Below are positions 40,283-50,311 of a DNA stretch of 64,000 nt, piece by piece. Position 1 is the first letter of the stretch, and the number at the start of each line of letters is the position of its first letter. The stretch comes from Bdellovibrionales bacterium (GTDB taxonomy: Bacteria > Bdellovibrionota > Bdellovibrionia > Bdellovibrionales > UBA1609): contig OZ241456.1 of NCBI GenBank assembly GCA_965200875.1, positions 1,280,001 through 1,344,000 on the forward strand, written 5' to 3'. The notes under the pieces are model-generated. The model did no database searches, was not told where the DNA came from, and saw only the letters and a list, made by a program, of their open reading frames with translations. The position numbers and the translations under genes are program-made.

Positions 40283-41144
40283 TAAACTTTAGCTTTTTCA
40301 AAAAAGTAAATCAACAGATTTCCCATATGGATACGGAGTAGTGGTCTCGGGACGATGATCAATATTCCATCCGTCTATACGCATGTTCAGTCGCAAATCC
40401 ATACTCTCCAATATTCTCTGAATTTTTCGCATGGATTCATCCTCTACCCTTTGAATGGATTTATGCCACAAACTAGGATGCTTAAGGAACCTTGGATCGG
40501 TAAAATCTATATCATTAGCTTGCCACCCATCTAAACGCGGATCCAAACGCAAACCCATGCTCTCCAATGCTTGCTTAATTCTCCGTCTAGACTCCTGATC
40601 AATAATCAAACTTTCTTGCAGGGTTTTATAATTAAAAATTCGCCAGAATGTCGGTTTAAAAGACACTCTCTGTTTTTGAACTAAGTCTCCAACAAAAACA
40701 ATATTGTTGGCAGAAAATTGATTTTGGATATAAATAGGAAAATCAACATCCTTCACACGCTTAAAGAGCCTTGGATCGGTAGGCTTTATATCATTAGCCT
40801 GCCACTCGAACGGATCCAAACGCATATCCAACCTCAGGCCAATGCTCTCCAATTTTTCCTTAATTTCCTGAACAGATTTCTCTCCTATATGAGGTATGCG
40901 CAAAAGCGTTGCAACAGGTTTTTCCGAACGCATTGACACCTTATCTATCTGGGCCAACAAGTCTCCTAAAACCACATTATCACGATTAAAGAAGGAAATT
41001 GGTAGAAATAGACCAGCAAGTATTCCATTTATGGTACGAGTGGAAAAATTCATATCTTTCATACGCTTTAAAAGCCTCGGGTCAGTAGGCTTTACTATAT
41101 CATTATCACGAGCATGATTTTCCTCCAAGAAAGCATCTTCACAG

Positions 41145-42400
41145 TGTTCTTGACCCCCAAAATTTGGCTACCTTCTAAAAGGAGGTAAAATGGATAGATT
41201 TTCCAAAAAGATTTCAAAAAATCAAAGATTTTTGATACTTTCAGAGCATTTTCAAGGTGGTCTCAGTATTTCCGAATTATCACGGAAGTATCAGATTCAA
41301 GCCGCAACTATTTATCAATGGAGGAGAGAGAAAATGCGCAGAGAAAAGAAAGCAACAGGATTAGACCAAGAGGAATTGCTTTTAGAGATAAATCGTTTAA
41401 AGGTGGAGAACTCTCGTTTAAAGCATACTGTAGCTGATCAAGCATTGGATATCACCACTCTTAAGCAATGGAATGAGTTTATGAAAAAAAAGTGGAGGGA
41501 AGAAAAACTGAATTTGCAAAAGAGTTTATCATCCACTGCTCAGCGATCTGCTGTAAAAAAAGATTTTGTGAGTTAATAGGGATTCATCCAAAGTCTCTTT
41601 ACAAAGTGAGTGAGAGGAGAAGTGTTAAGATGAAGATAAAGGATAAAGATAAGCAAATTTTATCAGGGATAAGAGCTGTGATAAAGGATCGTCCCACTTA
41701 TGGTTACAAGCGTGTAACGGCTCTTTACAACAAGGAGAGGGTTTTAAAGGGTTTAAGCAAGTATAATAAGAAGCGTATTTATCGTGTAATGAAAGAAAAT
41801 GGCCTTTTGTTACCCAAAGCTGTCAGCAGAAGGGAAGGGCATAAGAGTACAGGAAAAGTGATGACATTGTATTCCAATACGAGGTGGTGTTCTGATTGTT
41901 TTGAAATTCATTGTTTTAATGGAGAGAAGGTGTATGTTTCTTTTGTGTTAGACACATGTGACAGGGAGATTTTAAGCTTTACGGCGTCGTTAAAGCCTCT
42001 TTTATCAGAAGAAGACATACAGGGTTTGATGATTAGTGCTGTAGAAGGGCGATTTGATGCTTGTCGAACAAATAGAGAGATTGAATTTTTATCGGATCGA
42101 GGGAGTATTTACAGAGCGTATAATGTGCAGGTATTGGCCCGCCAGCTGGGTTTAAAGCCTTGTTTTACGAGGGCTTACAGTCCAGAGAGTAATGGTATGG
42201 CAGAGGCTTTTGTAAAGACAATAAAACGAGATTATGTGTATGTGAATGACTGCTCCTGTGCTGAAGACACTATGAAATTATTAAAAGAATGGATATATGA
42301 TTATAACCATAAAGCTCCCCATTCAGCACTTGGCATGAAGTCACCTGTGGAGTATATTAAATCAACACAAATGAGGTAGCCAAAAATAGGGGCCACTCCA
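41145..42400 (+). mobile_element. IS3-family (IS2 group) insertion sequence, copy 1, 1256 bp
   Basis: TG...CA ends with imperfect IRs (TGTTCTTGACCCCCAAAATTTGGCTACC / GGTAGCCAAAAATAGGGGCCACTCCA); 4-bp TSD ACAG. Confidence 0.95.
41190..42379 (+). CDS. IS3 transposase OrfA/OrfB, fused by -1 frameshift
   Basis: HTH OrfA; A8G slippery run near 41484-41492; DDE OrfB with SNTRWCSD, LSDRGS and SNGMAEAFVKTIKRDY. Confidence 0.93.
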
Positions 42401-42754
42401 ACAGGCATAGCCTGAACTTATACTTATAATGAAAGTAGATAAAGAGTAAAAAATCAATCTCAATAAAAAATTGTTCATCATTCATTTTCCTTTTTTTAAA
42501 CTGAACCAGATACAATTACATTACAGACTTTTCAGGTCCCACTATTCTAACAAAAGGGTTCAAAAACAGTCAATCTTTTTGAATGAATTATTTATTTTCT
42601 TGATTTATTAAATGAAAATATTACACAACATTGATAATTGTTTGTGAAAACAATTCCTCTAATGCTTAGTCACTATTCTAAAGTTTATTGATACTTCTGA
42701 ACCAGATTTTAGTAAAGGCGGGAGAAAATACTGTATTAATAATCAAAGTAAAGC

Positions 42755-43114
42755 TTAGTCTTCTTCAACAACAATAAAACCACTTATACCTTGTGAAGTT
42801 AAATAAGTCGCCAAGACCCGATCAACCTTCGCATCGGTAAAATCCGCACTACTCAAATTCGCTAGGAACAAATCTGCCAAGAACAAATCCGCACCACGCA
42901 AATTTGCATCGTGCAAATCCGCCCTGAACAAACTCGCGCCTCGCAAATTTGCATCGCGCAAATCCACCCCTCGCAGATCCGCCCATCGCAAATTGCACTG
43001 ATGATTTCCAGGCTTATTTATATAATCTTGATAATTATTGGTATTACACAGGGAGAGAGTGCCGTAGCTCAAAGCACCTAAGCTTAAAAATAGTAAAACA
43101 ATAAAAGTTTTCAT
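42755..43114 (-). CDS. secreted pentapeptide-repeat protein
   Basis: Signal peptide; A(D/N)Lxx repeats. Confidence 0.88.
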   Translation of the reverse strand: MKTFIVLLFLSLGALSYGTLSLCNTNNYQDYINKPGNHQCNLRWADLRGVDLRDANLRGASLFRADLHDANLRGADLFLADLFLANLSSADFTDAKVDRVLATYLTSQGISGFIVVEED

Positions 43115-43891
43115 AAATTACTCCTTTTTTCATTTTGATTGATAGTAATGATTTTATGAGAGATATACAATACAATTATTCTGGAAGAATCTCAAAATTT
43201 GTCTTTGTTTGAAAATTTACGCAAATAAGCCATAGCCTCCTCCATTTCAGGTGCTCTGCCAGATAGCTCTTTAAATTCTTCCTGACCTATCTTCATGGAA
43301 TTCTTTAAAATATAACACCATATATCCTGAAATTTAACTAAAGTGCTCATATCTCCCTCCGACTTAAACTTGCTAAGCTCCACTGTCACAAACTGTAAAT
43401 CCAGAAAGGAAAAACGCTCAGGAGCTTTATTTGGGCGGAAGGAAAAAGAATTGCAAGGTTTACCAGATGACACACCGGAAAAGTTTCTTTCTTGGTTGGG
43501 AAATAAATCAAATTTACTGAATATCAAAGAGTAAGAAAAACTAATGCTTGTGCAGTCTTCTTCTGTTAGTTGAGATACGTAGTGCTTCGCCCAGTAAAAA
43601 ACGATTCTTTCACTAAAGTGTTTGGGAAGAAAAGCCTGTATTACCACACTTATCAATTCTCCGGTATTAAGTTGCAGTCTCAGATTCATAAGGGATTTAT
43701 TCTCTTCTTTTGTAAGTTCAGGAAGAACAGAGTCCAACAAGATGACCTCCTGAATGAAGCTTTTATCCGGTAAAGGTAGGAAAGCTTTAAGCAAGGACTT
43801 TAATGCCGGTTTACAGAGTGTAAAGTAATTTTTAAAATACCCGATTTTAGTTAAATTGACCAAAAGCTGGCGATTTTTTGCTTCTTCTTTG

Positions 43892-45144
43892 TGTTCTTGA
43901 CCCCCAAAATTTGGCTACCTTCTAAAAGGAGGTAAAATGGATAGATTTTCCAAAAAGGTTTCAAAAAATCAAAGATTTTTGATACTTTCAGAGCATTTTC
44001 AAGGTGGTCTCAGTATTTCCGAATTATCACGGAAGTATCAGATTCAAGCCGCAACTATTTATCAATGGAGGAGAGAGAAAATGCGCAGAGAAAAGAAAGC
44101 AACAGGATTAGACCAAGAGGAATTGCTTTTAGAGATAAATCGTTTAAAGGTGGAGAACTCTCGTTTAAAGCATACTGTAGCTGATCAAGCATTGGATATC
44201 ACCACTCTTAAGCAATGGAATGAGTTTATGAAAAAAAAGTGGAGGGAAGAAAAACTGAATTTGCAAAAGAGTTTATCATCCACTGCTCAGCGATCTGCTG
44301 TAAAAAAAGATTTTGTGAGTTAATAGGGATTCATCCAAAGTCTCTTTACAAAGTGAGTGAGAGGAGAAGTGTTAAGATGAAGATAAAGGATAAAGATAAG
44401 CAAATTTTATCAGGGATAAGAGCTGTGATAAAGGATCGTCCCACTTATGGTTACAAGCGTGTAACGGCTCTTTACAACAAGGAGAGGGTTTTAAAGGGTT
44501 TAAGCAAGTATAATAAGAAGCGTATTTATCGTGTAATGAAAGAAAATGGCCTTTTGTTACCCAAAGCTGTCAGCAGAAGGGAAGGGCATAAGAGTACAGG
44601 AAAAGTGATGACATTGTATTCCAATACGAGGTGGTGTTCTGATTGTTTTGAAATTCATTGTTTTAATGGAGAGAAGGTGTATGTTTCTTTTGTGTTAGAC
44701 ACATGTGACAGGGAGATTTTAAGCTTTACGGCGTCGTTAAAGCCTCTTTTATCAGAAGACATACAGGGTTTGATGATTAGTGCTGTAGAAGGGCGATTTG
44801 ATGCTTGTCGAACAAATAGAGAGATTGAATTTTTATCGGATCGAGGGAGTATTTACAGAGCGTATAATGTGCAGGTATTGGCCCGCCAGCTGGGTTTAAA
44901 GCCTTGTTTTACGAGGGCTTACAGTCCAGAGAGTAATGGTATGGCAGAGGCTTTTGTAAAGACAATAAAACGAGATTATGTGTATGTGAATGACTGCTCC
45001 TGTGCTGAAGACACTATGAAATTATTAAAAGAATGGATATATGATTATAACCATAAAGCTCCCCATTCAGCACTTGGCATGAAGTCACCTGTGGAGTATA
45101 TTAAATCAACACAAATGAGGTAGCCAAAAATAGGGGCCACTCCA
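43892..45144 (+). mobile_element. IS3-family (IS2 group) insertion sequence, copy 2, 1253 bp
   Basis: Same ends as copy 1; 4-bp TSD TTTG; visible differences are one substitution (I/V) and a 3-bp indel. Confidence 0.95.
43937..45123 (+). CDS. IS3 transposase OrfA/OrfB, fused by -1 frameshift
   Basis: Near-identical to 41190-42379. Confidence 0.93.
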
Positions 45145-45277
45145 TTTGTTTCTGCTTATTTTTTTATTTGTTTTTTGCATAATGTACTCCTATGTTAAAA
45201 ATGTTTTTTATTATTCAAAAGTAGTTATGCAAAATTCGATCCAAAATCAGGGTTAATTGAATATTTATTTAAAATAA

Positions 45278-45520
45278 ATGAAAAAAATATGGTTGGAAAA
45301 GGATGCTTTCAATGGACAAAGGACAGAAAGACCTCAGCTGATCAAAGCTTTAAACTACTGCAATGACAATGATGCCACATTGATTGTGGCCAAGCTGGAC
45401 AGGCTTAGCCGTGACGCGGAGGTGACTAAGGCTTTGAATAAGTCAGACATAACCACCCGTGGAGGTGGCAAGTGGTTTACCACTCAAGTATACAGAGTCT
45501 CAAGACGGCATAAGTTATGA
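45278..45520 (+). pseudogene. internally deleted serine recombinase remnant
   Basis: ERPQL..AL...LIVAKLDRLSRD joined directly to ALN..DITTRGGGKWFTTQVYRV; no N-terminal YxRVS catalytic motif. Confidence 0.8.
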
Positions 45521-46047
45521 AAGTAATTTTACGAGACAGGCCCTTTTTAAAGGATTAAAATTAAAATGAATGATATAAAAAAAACGAAACAATTTTTAAA
45601 CAAGGGGGAAAACAATGGCACTATACTGTGTGATTTGTAATATATTACTAGAGCACCCACAAAAGAAAGTCTGTGCAAATATAATCTGTAAAAGAAAACA
45701 CCATAATAATTTAAGGCGAAACTGGAGTGAAAAGAATCCAGAAAAGATAAAAAAATTCAATGAAGATAGGCGAAAGAGGGAATGGTTGAAAAAAGGATTT
45801 TCAGAGCCACCGCCTAAGAAAGTTTATCCAAAGAGAATATATGAAGATAATAATGTTGATGACCTTGCGATTTTAAACAGGTGCAGAGCTAGTGCAGGAT
45901 TACGACCACTCTCTGAAATGCCAATGGTCCGCCATTACGCAGATCAAGGCCCAAAGCAACCAGAGAAACCAGTATTACCTATGGGAAAAGGAAACAAAAA
46001 AACATACCCGTCAAGTATATAGAGTCTCAAGACGGCATAAGTTATGA
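45484..46047. repeat. 37-bp direct repeats (45484-45520, 46011-46047)
   Basis: TCAAGTATA(C/T)AGAGTCTCAAGACGGCATAAGTTATGA, 36/37 identical. Confidence 0.9.
45615..46022 (+). CDS. hypothetical protein with N-terminal Cys cluster
   Basis: CVIC...CANIIC motif; purine-rich RBS; ends inside the second 37-bp repeat. Confidence 0.6.
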   Translation: MALYCVICNILLEHPQKKVCANIICKRKHHNNLRRNWSEKNPEKIKKFNEDRRKREWLKKGFSEPPPKKVYPKRIYEDNNVDDLAILNRCRASAGLRPLSEMPMVRHYADQGPKQPEKPVLPMGKGNKKTYPSSI

Positions 46048-46056
46048 GAATGATTT

Positions 46057-46227
46057 TTATGCGGCTTCCGGCTTTTTTGGTTGGTGTTTCTTTAAAGGTT
46101 GTTCTCTGAAGTTACCTTTTAGAATGTCTTTTATAGTTAAAAGCTGAATGTCCAGCCCTTCCCTTCGCCAAGCATCAGCTCGTTCTTTAGCTTTTGGAGT
46201 ATAGCCATTTAAAGTGATGAGGACAAG
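46057..46227 (-). pseudogene. C-terminal fragment of an Mrr-like restriction endonuclease domain
   Basis: LVLITLNGYTPKAKERADAWRREGLDIQLLTIKDILKG...*. Confidence 0.5.
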
Positions 46228-46383
46228 CGGGTTATTCCATTCATTAAGTTTCTAAGGCGTCAGGGAAAGACATTTCAGGAAATAGCCGATGCTTTAAATG
46301 AACAAGGCGAACCCTCCCGCTGGGGAAAACGCTGGCACAAAACCAGTGTGTTGCGGGTGGCAGACAGAAACGGCCTGGAGTAA
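46222..46383 (+). pseudogene. second serine recombinase C-terminal fragment
   Basis: DKRVIPFIKFLRRQGKTFQEIADALNEQGEPSRWGKRWHKTSVLRVADRNGLE*. Confidence 0.7.
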
Positions 46384-46390
46384 ATATCAT

Positions 46391-46547
46391 GGGAATCATA
46401 AAGAGAGGGTGGGCAATCTACATCGCTAGGGTGGGTGACCATTTTTTTCTGGGAAAATAGAGGCGTTTTTGGCGGGTTTTGGGACCGGTGGAAAATGTGC
46501 ACCCCTAAAAGCGATATATAACAGCTACCCGGTTGCTTATGATTCCC
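46391..46547. repeat. 157-bp long-hairpin element, copy 1
   Basis: GGGAATCATAA...TTATGATTCCC termini with nested internal inverted blocks; homologous to 47259-47416. Confidence 0.8.
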
Positions 46548-46548
46548 T

Positions 46549-47154
46549 TTACAAAAATGCAGTTTTACAAATTCTGGTCGTCTCCATATCATCCTTATAT
46601 ACAATCGCCCCCTTCAAATTCGCACCTATAAAATTCACCCCGGCTATAATCGCCTCGAGCAGATTAGCCCCAGTCAGATTCGCCCCAGTCAGATTCGCCT
46701 TAGTCAGATTCACCCTTCGCATATTCGCCTCAGTCAGATTCGCCCTAATCATAATCGCCCTAATCATAATCGCCTTAGCCAGATTAGCCCCAGTCAGATT
46801 CGCCCCTCGTAAATTCGCATCGGTAAAATCCACACTAATCAGATTAGCCCCAGTCAGATTCGCCTTAGTCAGATTCACCCTTATCAGATTCGCCCCAGTC
46901 AGATTCGCCCCAGTCAGATTCGCCCCAGTCAGATTCGCCCCAATCAGATTCGCCCCAGTCAGATTCGCCCCAGTCAGATTCACCCTTCGTATATTCGCCC
47001 CAGTCAGATTCGCCCCAGTCAGATTCGCCCCGGATAAATCTACATAGCGTAAATCCTTCCCGGTCATATCAGTATTGCTAAAATCTTTTGGGTTTTTTGC
47101 ATATAGTGGGAAAACACCTAAGCTTAAAAAAAGTAAAGTAATTATCAATCTCAT
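46549..47154 (-). CDS. secreted pentapeptide-repeat protein with near-perfect 15-bp tandem repeats
   Basis: Signal peptide; ANLTG repeats; CGCCCCAGTCAGATT tandem units. Confidence 0.9.
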   Translation of the reverse strand: MRLIITLLFLSLGVFPLYAKNPKDFSNTDMTGKDLRYVDLSGANLTGANLTGANIRRVNLTGANLTGANLIGANLTGANLTGANLTGANLIRVNLTKANLTGANLISVDFTDANLRGANLTGANLAKAIMIRAIMIRANLTEANMRRVNLTKANLTGANLTGANLLEAIIAGVNFIGANLKGAIVYKDDMETTRICKTAFL

Positions 47155-47258
47155 TAGTTATCTCCTAGTTTTGTTTTCTTTGCATAATACAGGTGTTTAT
47201 GAAAAACACTTAATAAAAAAACAAGTCCGGGTAATATTTACATAAAAAAAATAAAGAC

Positions 47259-47416
47259 TGGAATCATAAAGAAAGGGGGGGCATCATACATCGCGGTGGG
47301 TGCGTCTCCATCTTTTCCCGCGGGAATAAGTGCATAAAAAGGCGGTTTTGGGCCCGAGGGAAAATGTGCACCCCTTTTCGCGATATAAAACCTCCCACCA
47401 GTGGCTTATGATTCCC
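47259..47416. repeat. 158-bp long-hairpin element, copy 2
   Basis: Same termini and conserved blocks (TACATCGC, GGAAAATGTGCACCCCT, GCGATATA) as copy 1. Confidence 0.8.
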
Positions 47417-47494
47417 TTTCCTAAAAAACGAAAAAGCCCGTCTGAGATACACAGGCTTTTCACAACAAATGGAATTATGAAAAATAAATACAAT

Positions 47495-48232
47495 TCAGTC
47501 TTCGACAATTTTATATCCGACTATACCTTTTGAGAGTAAATAATTCGCCCACCTCTGATTAACTTTCGCACCGGTGAAATTCGCACCGGTGAAATTCACC
47601 CCTCGCAAAATAGTTTCAACCAAATTCGCATTGCTCAAATTCGCATTGCTCAAATTCGCTTGCCACAAAACCGCACCGCTCAAATCCGCACCGCTCAAAT
47701 CCGCACCGCTCAAATCCGACCTGTGTAAATCCGTCGCTCTCAAATTCGCATTACTCAAATTCGCATTGCTCAAATTCGCATCTTGCAAATCCGCCCAGTA
47801 CAGATTCGCATTGCTCAAATTCGCATGGTTCAAATTCGCATGGTTCAAATTCGTATAGCCCAAATCCGCATCTGTCAAATTCGCGCCTTGCAAATTCGCG
47901 CCTTGCAAAATCTCCCTGTGCAAATTCGCACCGGACAAATCGCACTTATGCTCTCCGGTTTTTTTTATATACTCTTTGTAATTATAGATATTACACACTG
48001 GAGCATCCGCTTCCGATTGAACATTTACTCCAGCTTCAGAACCTGCTGTGTTAACCACTACACTAGGGTTAGCACCGGCGGTGGGTGCTCCCGCGCCAGC
48101 TTCAGCACCGGCGGTGGTTGATCCCGCGCCAGCTTCAGCACCGGCGGTGGGTGCTCCACTTGAACCACTATCTTTTTTCTCACAACCTAAAAAACATAAG
48201 CTTAAAAACAATAAAGCAATTATAGTTTTCAT
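47495..48232 (-). CDS. pentapeptide-repeat lipoprotein
   Basis: Lipobox FLGC; TAGAEAGAG linker repeats; ANLSN/ADLSG repeats. Confidence 0.88.
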   Translation of the reverse strand: MKTIIALLFLSLCFLGCEKKDSGSSGAPTAGAEAGAGSTTAGAEAGAGAPTAGANPSVVVNTAGSEAGVNVQSEADAPVCNIYNYKEYIKKTGEHKCDLSGANLHREILQGANLQGANLTDADLGYTNLNHANLNHANLSNANLYWADLQDANLSNANLSNANLRATDLHRSDLSGADLSGADLSGAVLWQANLSNANLSNANLVETILRGVNFTGANFTGAKVNQRWANYLLSKGIVGYKIVED

Positions 48233-48389
48233 AAAATACTCCTTTTTAAAGTGAATTAATTATCCACTTATCTTTTAACACTATCGGATAAAATTGTAAA
48301 AAATAAATGGAATCATAAAGATGAGACACTTACCTATTTATTATTTAAACAAGTGAATAAAAGAAAAGGGAATCATACCCTCAACAGAC

Positions 48390-48719
48390 TTATTTATATT
48401 TATAGTTTTTCTTACCCTCTAGTTGAGACAAATCAAAATCCTGAAGCAAATCAAGAATAACATCATAGGTAGAAACAGATCTAAATTCCCCTGATTCCTG
48501 AGACCAATCAAAAAACCTAGCGATAGCATTCAACCTTTCTTGTCGCTCTTCTTCCTCTAGTCGCTCTAGTTTAGAAAAATCAAGCAAATCAAGAATAACA
48601 TCATAGGTAGAAACAAATCTAACATCTCCTGATTCCTGACTAAAATTATGAGCAGAAGCCACGCCCCCTTGGACAACAAATAAAAAACAAAAAATAATAC
48701 CTTTAATATATTTTTTCAT
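48390..48719 (-). CDS. small exported protein with internal duplication
   Basis: Signal peptide; SQESG..R.VSTYDVILDLL occurs twice. Confidence 0.7.
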   Translation of the reverse strand: MKKYIKGIIFCFLFVVQGGVASAHNFSQESGDVRFVSTYDVILDLLDFSKLERLEEEERQERLNAIARFFDWSQESGEFRSVSTYDVILDLLQDFDLSQLEGKKNYKYK

Positions 48720-48883: not shown

Positions 48884-50311
48884 TTAAATTGCAAACCCAT
48901 AAAATCCTCTTTGCCTATGGTCAATAAAATATTTCGTACCCAAGACAGCACACACAGCCCCGTCTATACTATCCCAAGCTGAACCTCTATCCAGAAGTGT
49001 ATAGCCTTTTGACTTCTGCGAACAAATTGCATCATTAAACATCTTCTTTAAACATGGATTTTCTCCTATAAAGTGCACCTTACCCTCTTTGCTCCGGGCC
49101 TCAATAAACCTGATAGAATGACTTAACTCCCTGGCTGTTCCGGCTAATAATTCCGGATCACTTGAAAATTCCTCTGTCCAACCTGTGGCCAAGTTTCTAT
49201 CCCATACAAACTTCTCCACTGAAAGATTATGTTCTTTTAAAAAAGCTTTTATATCAGCACAGAAGATACTTTTATCGATCGCAGGGCGGTTTTGGATTGT
49301 AATAAATCCTTGTTTTTCCCAGTTTTCAAAAGTAGTTTTTTGACCAGGACGCCTTAAATCTGTATTAGCCAAATGCAGGAAGGGATATAAATAAATTTCC
49401 TCTGTACTCTCATTGAATAAACAGACTACACAAGCGCAAAAATCTTTTGACAAAGCTAAATCAAAAGCCACTATGACCCTTAAATTTTTATTTTCTAAAA
49501 CACTTTTATCTGCAATTTTTATATCATTCACATCAACCCATTGATAATTTAAGGAGCTTATTCTTTGGCCAAGCTGAAAACGCCTATACACCACCAAATT
49601 CTCTGAAGACTTTTTTGCCCTTTCTGATTCAGAATTTACAAAATCATATACGGACTTCAAAAGTGGATTCTTTGTTTCCACATAGTTTTTATAAAAAGGG
49701 TTAGCTAAACATTTTGCTTCCTCTGAATAAACATCCATTTTTAAAGGAGCTGAGAAGTCATAAAAAGCCCAATCAGGATCAGTCACCAATGTTTTAAGAT
49801 AATCTGCCGACCAATGAGTCACCTGCTCTGGGGGATTTGAGCTGAACAAAAGTAAAGGCTTCCCTCCCTGACTTAGAGCTAAGCCGGACATTATACTGTT
49901 TATGTTCTCACGCGATTGCATAGCTCCCACCTCATCCGCGATGAGGCCACTCACATTCAACATCCCCAAGTTACTAGCTGCTTTGCTAAAAACCTTATAC
50001 AAATGATTTTGTCTCTCTGTATTTTCTAAATCCTCATTCCGTATCTTATAATTTTTAGCATTTATACGCGGGTTCAGCTGTATCTGTGTGGCTATTAAAG
50101 AATAAATTATATTACTTTGTGAAAAAGTGCTTGCCATATTCACCAGAGCTAAACCTTCCCGGTTTTCCAAAAGATAATTAAAAAGCCAAGAAAAAATTAA
50201 AGACTTACTTATCTTACGACTGTACCCCATAAAAACATTTTTATTTATACTGCCGTCAAGGATAAGCGTTCCTGGTAACCATCTGAAAATTTTTGTTGCC
50301 ATTGATTCCAA
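48884..50311 (-). CDS. phage terminase large subunit, orphan and probably 5'-truncated
   Basis: Walker A-like GYSRKISKS, Walker B LIADE, nuclease VAFDLALSKDF and C-terminal SIDGAV motifs. Confidence 0.75.
   Translation of the reverse strand: MESMATKIFRWLPGTLILDGSINKNVFMGYSRKISKSLIFSWLFNYLLENREGLALVNMASTFSQSNIIYSLIATQIQLNPRINAKNYKIRNEDLENTERQNHLYKVFSKAASNLGMLNVSGLIADEVGAMQSRENINSIMSGLALSQGGKPLLLFSSNPPEQVTHWSADYLKTLVTDPDWAFYDFSAPLKMDVYSEEAKCLANPFYKNYVETKNPLLKSVYDFVNSESERAKKSSENLVVYRRFQLGQRISSLNYQWVDVNDIKIADKSVLENKNLRVIVAFDLALSKDFCACVVCLFNESTEEIYLYPFLHLANTDLRRPGQKTTFENWEKQGFITIQNRPAIDKSIFCADIKAFLKEHNLSVEKFVWDRNLATGWTEEFSSDPELLAGTARELSHSIRFIEARSKEGKVHFIGENPCLKKMFNDAICSQKSKGYTLLDRGSAWDSIDGAVCAVLGTKYFIDHRQRGFYGFAI

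Follow-up and report, generated by a model that had tools for sequence, protein, structure and literature searches.

Does an alpha-CTD array split from a leader peptide by a mobile element, as found in a Bdellovibrionales genome, represent a broken gene for an exported protein, and what would such a protein do? We analysed the locus within a stretch of 64,000 nucleotides (the window; positions 1,280,001 to 1,344,000 of contig OZ241456.1). Its parts, in window coordinates, are the following.

40298..41140, minus strand: 3′ piece of the gene, 280 stop-free codons plus stop, starting EDAF (the remainder of the tag) and free of Cys
40361..40516, minus strand: alpha-CTD repeat 3, 52 aa, internally deleted, with the last helix and tail left
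40517..40795, minus strand: alpha-CTD repeat 2, 93 aa, keeping only the N268 and S299 equivalents
40796..41104, minus strand: alpha-CTD repeat 1, 103 aa, with two insertions, keeping the R265, N268, G296, K298 and S299 equivalents
41141..41144, plus strand: target-site duplication ACAG, left copy
41145..42400, plus strand: IS3-type insertion sequence (OrfA 41190-41576, OrfB 41492-42379; 7 genome copies)
42401..42404, plus strand: target-site duplication ACAG, right copy
42401..42481, minus strand: 5′ piece of the gene, 27 codons, a Sec-type leader whose last residue is the tag Cys
42488..42492, minus strand: Shine-Dalgarno-like AAGGA, 6 nt upstream of ATG 42481, read from the sequence
42544..42573, minus strand: promoter-like site TTGACT-18 nt-TG-TAGAAT, the region's best (10/12)

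The original prediction had proposed a signal-peptide protein made of alpha-CTD repeats, hidden and currently inactivated by an insertion sequence (IS), and the gene structure bears this out: an IS flanked by an ACAG duplication separates the 27-codon leader from a 280-codon repeat piece that matches PF03118, with both pieces in frame. Elements of the IS3 type have TG...CA ends, an OrfA with a helix-turn-helix, an OrfB with a DDE domain and a duplication of 3-4 bp. The element at 41145-42400 (1256 bp) shows all of these, with TG...CA ends, HTH_Tnp_1 in OrfA and rve/rve_3 in OrfB, and from this anatomy we read it as IS3-type; the source genome (G000) holds seven near-identical full copies. Translated separately, the 81-nt 5′ piece and the 843-nt 3′ piece both give whole numbers of codons, so the length of 307 aa originally reconstructed is right. 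A chance frame was ruled out, as the Cys and EDAF halves of the family motif flank the duplication. An assembly artefact was ruled out as well, since contigs from sequencing run X1 cross both IS junctions (depth 16.2 and 15.1; about 110× for the IS). No empty-site joint was found in four runs, of which only X1 and X2, from one sample, cover the gene, in contigs that drop rare alleles.

Upstream of the insertion, ATG 42481 is preceded by an in-frame stop and starts an open run of 27 codons. The 5′ piece scored E=0.02 with a leader profile that had the piece itself in its training set. Promoter-like sites numbered 9 against 8.2 expected by chance, and the one at 42573-42544 is not significant. 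As the leader is severed by the IS, the window copy gives no exported product. A genome-wide check for intact paralogs, proposed together with the original prediction, found none in G000; the other PF03118 matches there were rejected, their frames reading in translation as DNA ligase, helicase/nuclease and MurG.

A second copy of the IS at window 43892-45144, with a TTTG duplication, adjoins the 5′ end of a PD-(D/E)XK_2 (Rpn-like) ORF (43192-43863), and a copy at G000:C1:1782279 splits a long frame into 337 and 358 open codons. Window positions 42755-48719 and 48884-50311 form a variable island, possibly a phage remnant: pentapeptide-repeat genes that have leaders and share repeats upstream are clustered there, along with a terminase-ATPase-like ORF and a fragment of a resolvase.

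We then asked what the repeats are. Their alpha-CTD identity was upheld by profile, PDB sequence search and predicted fold. The 3′ piece matches PF03118 with 40.7 bits (cut-off 23.8, E=2e-10), and RpoA accounts for 30 of 31 matches in the PDB sequence search. The predicted structure has a mean pLDDT of 56, with repeat cores at about 68-86; all Foldseek matches listed are RNA-polymerase entries, with TM scores of 0.65-0.81 on isolated CTDs and a best E of 2e-3 for the 3′ piece (none at E≤0.001). Each of the three units starts with ND and the third is shortened by an internal deletion, both as first described; units 1 and 2 are 47% identical. The two insertions in repeat 1 are about 10 residues each. 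This repeat had also been credited with keeping R..N and GEKS, and all five equivalents are indeed present, while repeat 2 lacks those of R265, G296 and K298. The last three of the five positions, G296, K298 and S299, are presumably DNA contacts of the alpha-CTD in addition to R265 and N268.

The window repeats thus share fold and sequence with the RpoA alpha-CTD (PF03118; PDB 1COO, 3K4G, 1LB2, 3N97), and repeat 1 retains R265 and N268, which are reported to contact DNA (PMC11434276). The protein differs from RpoA in lacking the alpha-NTD, in its tandem copies, in its export leader and in the loss of C269, and the genome has a separate intact gene:

G000:C1:873735-875270: intact rpoA (L001)

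Classification of the window protein as an RpoA was rejected, as Pfam finds no N-terminal dimerisation domain and NF003513 gives 66 bits against a cut-off of 302. The closest labelled match to the true RpoA of G000, at 86% identity, is a homologue annotated as Bdellovibrionales bacterium. RpoA of this genus carries a long low-complexity Pro/Thr/Ser/acidic tail beyond the CTD (L001, L013-L015, L020, L023-L025), with open frames of about 450-590 aa compared with 340-370 in most other genera.

Alpha-CTDs likewise occur outside RNA polymerase in BREX type-2 PglW, in MzaA-type proteins and in leaderless alpha-CTD repeat proteins (ESM Atlas clusters). As outlined in PMC12839542, the domain serves there as a nucleic-acid-binding module, sometimes beside sigma-4 or wHTH, and alpha-CTD repeats in cytoplasmic proteins, PglW among them, are common and known. 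PglW and MzaA-type proteins are cytoplasmic, PglW carries NERD and kinase domains, and both leader and tag are missing from the cytoplasmic examples seen. We rejected a PglW/MzaA assignment for the window protein, which matched 0 PADLOC families; its relatives gave matches over short CTD or sigma-4 stretches only.

Intact relatives were found in three small-genome genera. A repeat profile built mostly from genus repeats was run over 109 genomes of the taxonomic family, and detected additional alpha-CTDs in the own genus (5 of 15 genomes) and in genera g37 (5 of 10) and g3 (4 of 4), every one of these genomes measuring 1.3-2.5 Mb; only 3 of the remaining 80 genomes had a second alpha-CTD match. 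Ten of the first 12 ORFs from the genus and family have complete 5′ ends (one is cut by a contig end, one by a gap), and all ten start with a hydrophobic leader followed by C-x-x-x-F. Nineteen further frames comprise 12 with a leader and N-terminal motif, 2 with a leader and C-terminal motif, 4 that are cut or fragments and 1 that is ambiguous; in the two sister genera, the leader and N-terminal motif are therefore present in 12 of 15 assessable frames, and 2 more have the C-terminal motif. The leader, whose absence from intact homologues would have told against the original reading, is a consistent feature of them (10/10 complete ORFs; 14/15 assessable frames).

Among the best 149 database representatives (window protein excluded), 52 have a leader and 37 a leader plus motif, the motif ending in F in 31 of the 37; the remaining 97 score as leaderless. 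The motif occurs in 37/149 of these top representatives compared with 6/693 internal windows, but several of the 149 duplicate genome ORFs, and the two sets are not independent. Arrays in the family range from 1 to 13 tandem alpha-CTDs, and stops break some relatives, which suggests fast turnover. Profile searches recovered this family, unlike a word-based homologue search, which at its limit of sensitivity returned only the window protein itself (1/616 candidates). A search for related loci in named genomes gave one unrelated short match, and a phage collection yielded nothing beyond rpoA and sigma fragments. By its sequence, the locus belongs to this Bdellovibrionales family, whose alpha-CTD arrays carry export signals, and is a member that the IS has inactivated. 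The original prediction did not include the family, the C-x-x-x-F tag or the sigma region 4 fusions described below.

Leader calls rest on a hydropathy rule that scores n-, h- and c-region anatomy, and by this rule the window protein has the signal peptide predicted for it. Apart from the Cys of the motif, the mature chain is free of Cys in 35 of the 37 tagged proteins. Cys content after the motif is 0.03%, compared with 0.76% in leaderless proteins, and RpoA C269 is kept in 2/183 tagged repeats, 85/379 leaderless repeats and 19/19 RpoA. This loss of cysteine, together with a tag common to other exported proteins, lends independent support to export, which is well supported for family members as far as sequence can tell.

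The tag extends to other proteins of G000, although the statistics come from a crude gene set and a residue class picked after seeing the data: C-x-x-[AGSVT]-F follows the leader in 20/421 leader ORFs compared with 4/930 others (p=1.5e-7), and is found within 12 residues of the C-terminus in 9/421 leader ORFs compared with 3/930 (p=0.002). Part of the 20 N-tagged ORFs are probably lipoproteins or chance matches. Eight N-tagged cargoes comprise four ankyrin proteins, a ResIII/DEAD helicase, an RNase III, an alpha/beta hydrolase (below cut-off) and one protein without assignment. This RNase III (L044; G000:C1:754770-756098) is the second in the genome, has a leader, tag, dsRBD and further RNase III-like domain, and shares 44% identity with the housekeeping RNase III (C1:1103172-1103831). 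The tagged RNase III and helicase are cytoplasm-type nucleic-acid enzymes. C-tagged cargoes include Sel1-like, TPR, ankyrin and pentapeptide proteins, and most leader proteins with a C-terminal C-x-x-[AV]-F have no other Cys. Individual examples, including a second tagged family of 280-690-aa repeat proteins whose mature chains start S-S-P/S-G-E/S-V-F, are as follows.

46549..47154 of the window, minus strand: C-tagged pentapeptide-repeat protein, with C-x-x-[AV]-F at most 7 residues from the C-terminus
G000:C1 629195, 1508519, 1154727, 295544, 487957, 968886 and 787905: C-tagged leader proteins, with the motif likewise at most 7 residues from the C-terminus
G000:C1 442530, 911016 and 1367458, and L152, L144, L147 and L154: second tagged repeat family, no confident Pfam family

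Of 32 held-out proteins from loci around leader-profile hits, 16 have no Pfam family, 3 are ankyrin proteins, and one each is a Sel1, hydrolase and integrase-repeat protein. A 400-kb sample of the 3.3-Mb relative G047 gave 5 looser tag candidates among 90 leader ORFs, with 1 in a control window, one candidate having an EndoU match below cut-off; from this sample, the tag may extend beyond genomes that are reduced.

Machinery that could handle such cargo is encoded in G000 (1.87 Mb, 37% GC, 94.5% complete), where four matches to secretins and seven to T2SSE-family ATPases were found. Above NCBIfam cut-offs are GspD, GspE and GspF (T2SS), PilQ and PilT (T4aP) and CpaB (Tad). Four secretin matches were found in 14 of the 15 genus genomes and three in G007. 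Outside the main Tad locus, L216:8913-11580 (G000:C1 about 1648900-1651600) encodes a TadA-like ATPase paired with a further secretin of small size. Secretins of that size class turn up repeatedly in the genus, and the pair is a candidate route for tagged cargo. Separately, the tagged alpha-CTD gene of L033 (G013:C1:745925-747322) adjoins genes whose translations read as type II secretion or pilin-like, which is not so for the other members seen. Searches of the source genome for an ATP/ADP translocase found none, with a control that gave no match either, and no histone fold was found.

We next considered whether the repeats still look able to bind promoters. Tagged repeats keep R265 in 79/175, N268 in 66/180, G296 in 93/180, K298 in 50/180 and S299 in 57/181 cases, and all five in 8/169, compared with 41/364 leaderless repeats; the hydrophobic core is kept at 85-92%. 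This partial loss of contact residues is the main evidence against strict mimicry as judged from sequence. Even so, a repeat with four or five of the contact residues is present in 11 of the 37 tagged proteins. Among 64 of the 149 representatives scanned, Sigma70_r4 was found in 7 of 53 leader-type proteins, and it is present in L036 too; this amounts to 8 of 61 proteins (53 leader-type plus 8 alpha-CTD frames, L036 included). The window protein has no sigma region 4. For P0145, the best sigma matches are RpoD/SigA, and the ERIRQI/ERVRQI recognition helix is kept in four of the seven leader-type sigma-4 proteins. In RNA polymerase, UP and -35 DNA are occupied by alpha-CTD and sigma region 4, as indicated by the title of PDB entry 3N97. 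Leaderless proteins with both modules exist (P0077, P0086), and the fusion may thus be inherited or borrowed. A single-sequence fold of P0055 had a pLDDT of 50, with no defined structure in the sigma-4 region.

The source of the repeats is less clear. Over 65 positions, window repeat 1 shares 27 identities with the Sinorhizobium CTD, 24 with that of E. coli and 19 with its own genome's CTD. Proteobacterial CTDs are nearer for 147/172 tagged and 267/359 leaderless repeats, with diagnostic columns mixed. In a tree, the window repeats join Alphaproteobacteria at 95/93, on long branches and without rejection of the alternative (AU p=0.16). An origin from the own rpoA is disfavoured for the window repeats by these comparisons but not rejected, and there are weak indications of a prey-type origin. 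Capture from the own rpoA also occurs: L049:994-2478 (G065) has a leader and a helical region, followed by a near-exact Bdellovibrionales-type RpoA CTD with its Cys retained, and is tagged at the C-terminus; by its sequence, it looks like a recent capture.

The reading we prefer, at a likelihood a little short of even, is that exported alpha-CTD arrays serve as a promoter or DNA-binding decoy directed at prey. Sec would carry the protein into the periplasm, where the lone Cys motif could act as a sorting tag, through a disulfide or carrier docking, for a secretin machine (T2SS or Tad). Once in the cytoplasm of another bacterium, whether prey or host, the array would bind AT-rich upstream promoter DNA with avidity, and/or titrate alpha-CTD partners (activators, NusA, sigma region 4), so that the victim's transcription would be damped or redirected. 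Architecture, family, tag statistics, secretion kit and inactivation of the window copy can be demonstrated at the sequence level. The leader and motif statistics, the cysteine loss, the tagged nucleic-acid enzymes, the sigma-4 fusions, the secretion kit and the nearness of the window repeats to proteobacterial alpha-CTDs argue for the decoy. The rarity of full contact sets (window repeat 1 being a full match) and of sigma region 4 argues against it, as do the many ankyrin, TPR/Sel1 or pentapeptide cargoes, which are typical of animal symbionts, and the presence of the family in only 5 of 15 genus genomes. Of the effector or decoy delivered into another cell that was originally envisaged, export stands on sequence grounds, whereas delivery and the decoy role are what we infer, with DNA-contact residues partly kept in the family.

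The behaviour of B. bacteriovorus is relevant here. Its secreted proteins are reported to enter and kill prey, secretion alone sufficing for killing (PMC11003981), prey transcription halts 20-25 min after invasion (PMC13689555), and Tad is required for invasion (bioRxiv 10.64898/2026.07.08.737194). Its secretion routes are described as little explored (PMC12622784; PMC12428579), and by PMC12428579 no route from the periplasm to the prey cytoplasm is established, which counts against the decoy, as does the weakness of the evidence for a prey-type origin. The Sec-exported predation proteins of this species (the 'kiss of death' secretome) share with our family the order, the Sec leader and the T2SS/T4aP/Tad kit. 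Their cargo classes include hydrolases and nucleases; the cargoes described in the accessible portion are envelope-acting or hydrolases, in contrast to our family, with no transcription-machinery domain or Cys tag among them. The family would act like an exported Bdellovibrio effector built from a domain that is otherwise cytoplasmic.

An unlikely alternative is an exported array that binds DNA regardless of sequence, with promoters playing no part. It would trap, compact or protect DNA from prey or the environment, which would then be taken up or digested in the periplasm or in what is left of the prey. The model for this is ComEA, an exported helix-hairpin-helix (HhH) DNA receptor. Compared by description only, ComEA-type receptors likewise export an HhH-class DNA-binding fold, whereas the family repeats are RpoA-derived, multicopy, fast-evolving, patchy and outside competence operons in the loci seen. 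HhH_5 co-hits occur in many members, the partly kept contact residues are what weak avidity binding would predict, and the tagged RNase III and helicase, the G047 EndoU match and the integrase-repeat protein suggest nucleic-acid handling; degradation of prey DNA has also been proposed for nucleases that B. bacteriovorus secretes (PMC12546842). This reading sits poorly with the RpoD-type sigma region 4 of the seven leader-type proteins, four of them with the recognition helix, and with a top fold and profile match to alpha-CTD rather than ComEA.

Unlikely, too, is that the repeats have turned into a helical scaffold for protein binding in general, comparable to the tagged ankyrin, TPR/Sel1 and pentapeptide proteins and directed at the cell surface or an animal host such as a sponge, with an RpoA likeness that is ancestral only. 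Such a scaffold would account for a conserved core with a variable surface (repeat identity 48% within and 31% between proteins) and for the large insertions common among family repeats. It would also fit the concentration of the family in 1.3-2.5 Mb genomes: FliF/YscJ was absent from the four tested (G000, G013, G110, G066) and present in G047, a 97% copy of the IS (IS only, gene excluded) occurs in a sponge metagenome run, and Bdellovibrionota of sponges have been described that are reduced, lack motility, are rich in ankyrins and have uncertain prey (PMC9944714). The proteins with 4-5 contact residues in a repeat speak against a mere scaffold, as do the sigma-4, RNase III and helicase cargoes, which act on bacterial nucleic acids, and ankyrins are reported to serve B. 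bacteriovorus predation as well (PMC13689555).

Retention of the protein, as a lipoprotein or uncleaved membrane anchor regulating the cell's own transcription or as a periplasmic decoy, is improbable: the window Cys does directly follow the c-region (G-Y-A-C), but the lipobox pattern is [LVI][ASTVI][GAS]C, the window has G-Y-A ahead of its Cys, and among the 37 tagged proteins we found 0 canonical lipoboxes, 0 Tat (twin-arginine) motifs and 19 with a charged residue at -3 to -1, while the same motif at the C-termini of other proteins, basic n-regions, which by an established rule imply C-out topology, and cysteine loss fitting periplasmic passage all argue for release.

Returning to the decoy, the family suggests, on present sequence evidence, that array proteins are delivered to other bacterial cells, whose gene expression they would disturb. 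We also put forward, as a possible but doubtful generalization, a Bdellovibrionales effector route in which a Sec leader and a lone-Cys C-x-x-x-F/L tag at either chain end would take cytoplasm-active cargo through T2SS or Tad into another bacterium; one cargo class, prey-type alpha-CTD arrays with or without RpoD region 4, would mimic the promoter-reading head of RNA polymerase and stop or reprogramme the victim's transcription. In the open literature searched, we found neither exported alpha-CTD arrays nor the tag described.

As the window copy is dead, the value of these findings rests on the family rather than the locus. For the silencing of prey by Bdellovibrio-type predators, the family offers a candidate effector built from the transcription machine, and for the passage of proteins beyond the predator's own periplasm a candidate sorting tag. 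The latter is suited to existing B. bacteriovorus reporters and, with at least 20 G000 proteins carrying it, is usable as a search key for the effector repertoires of uncultured predators and symbionts.
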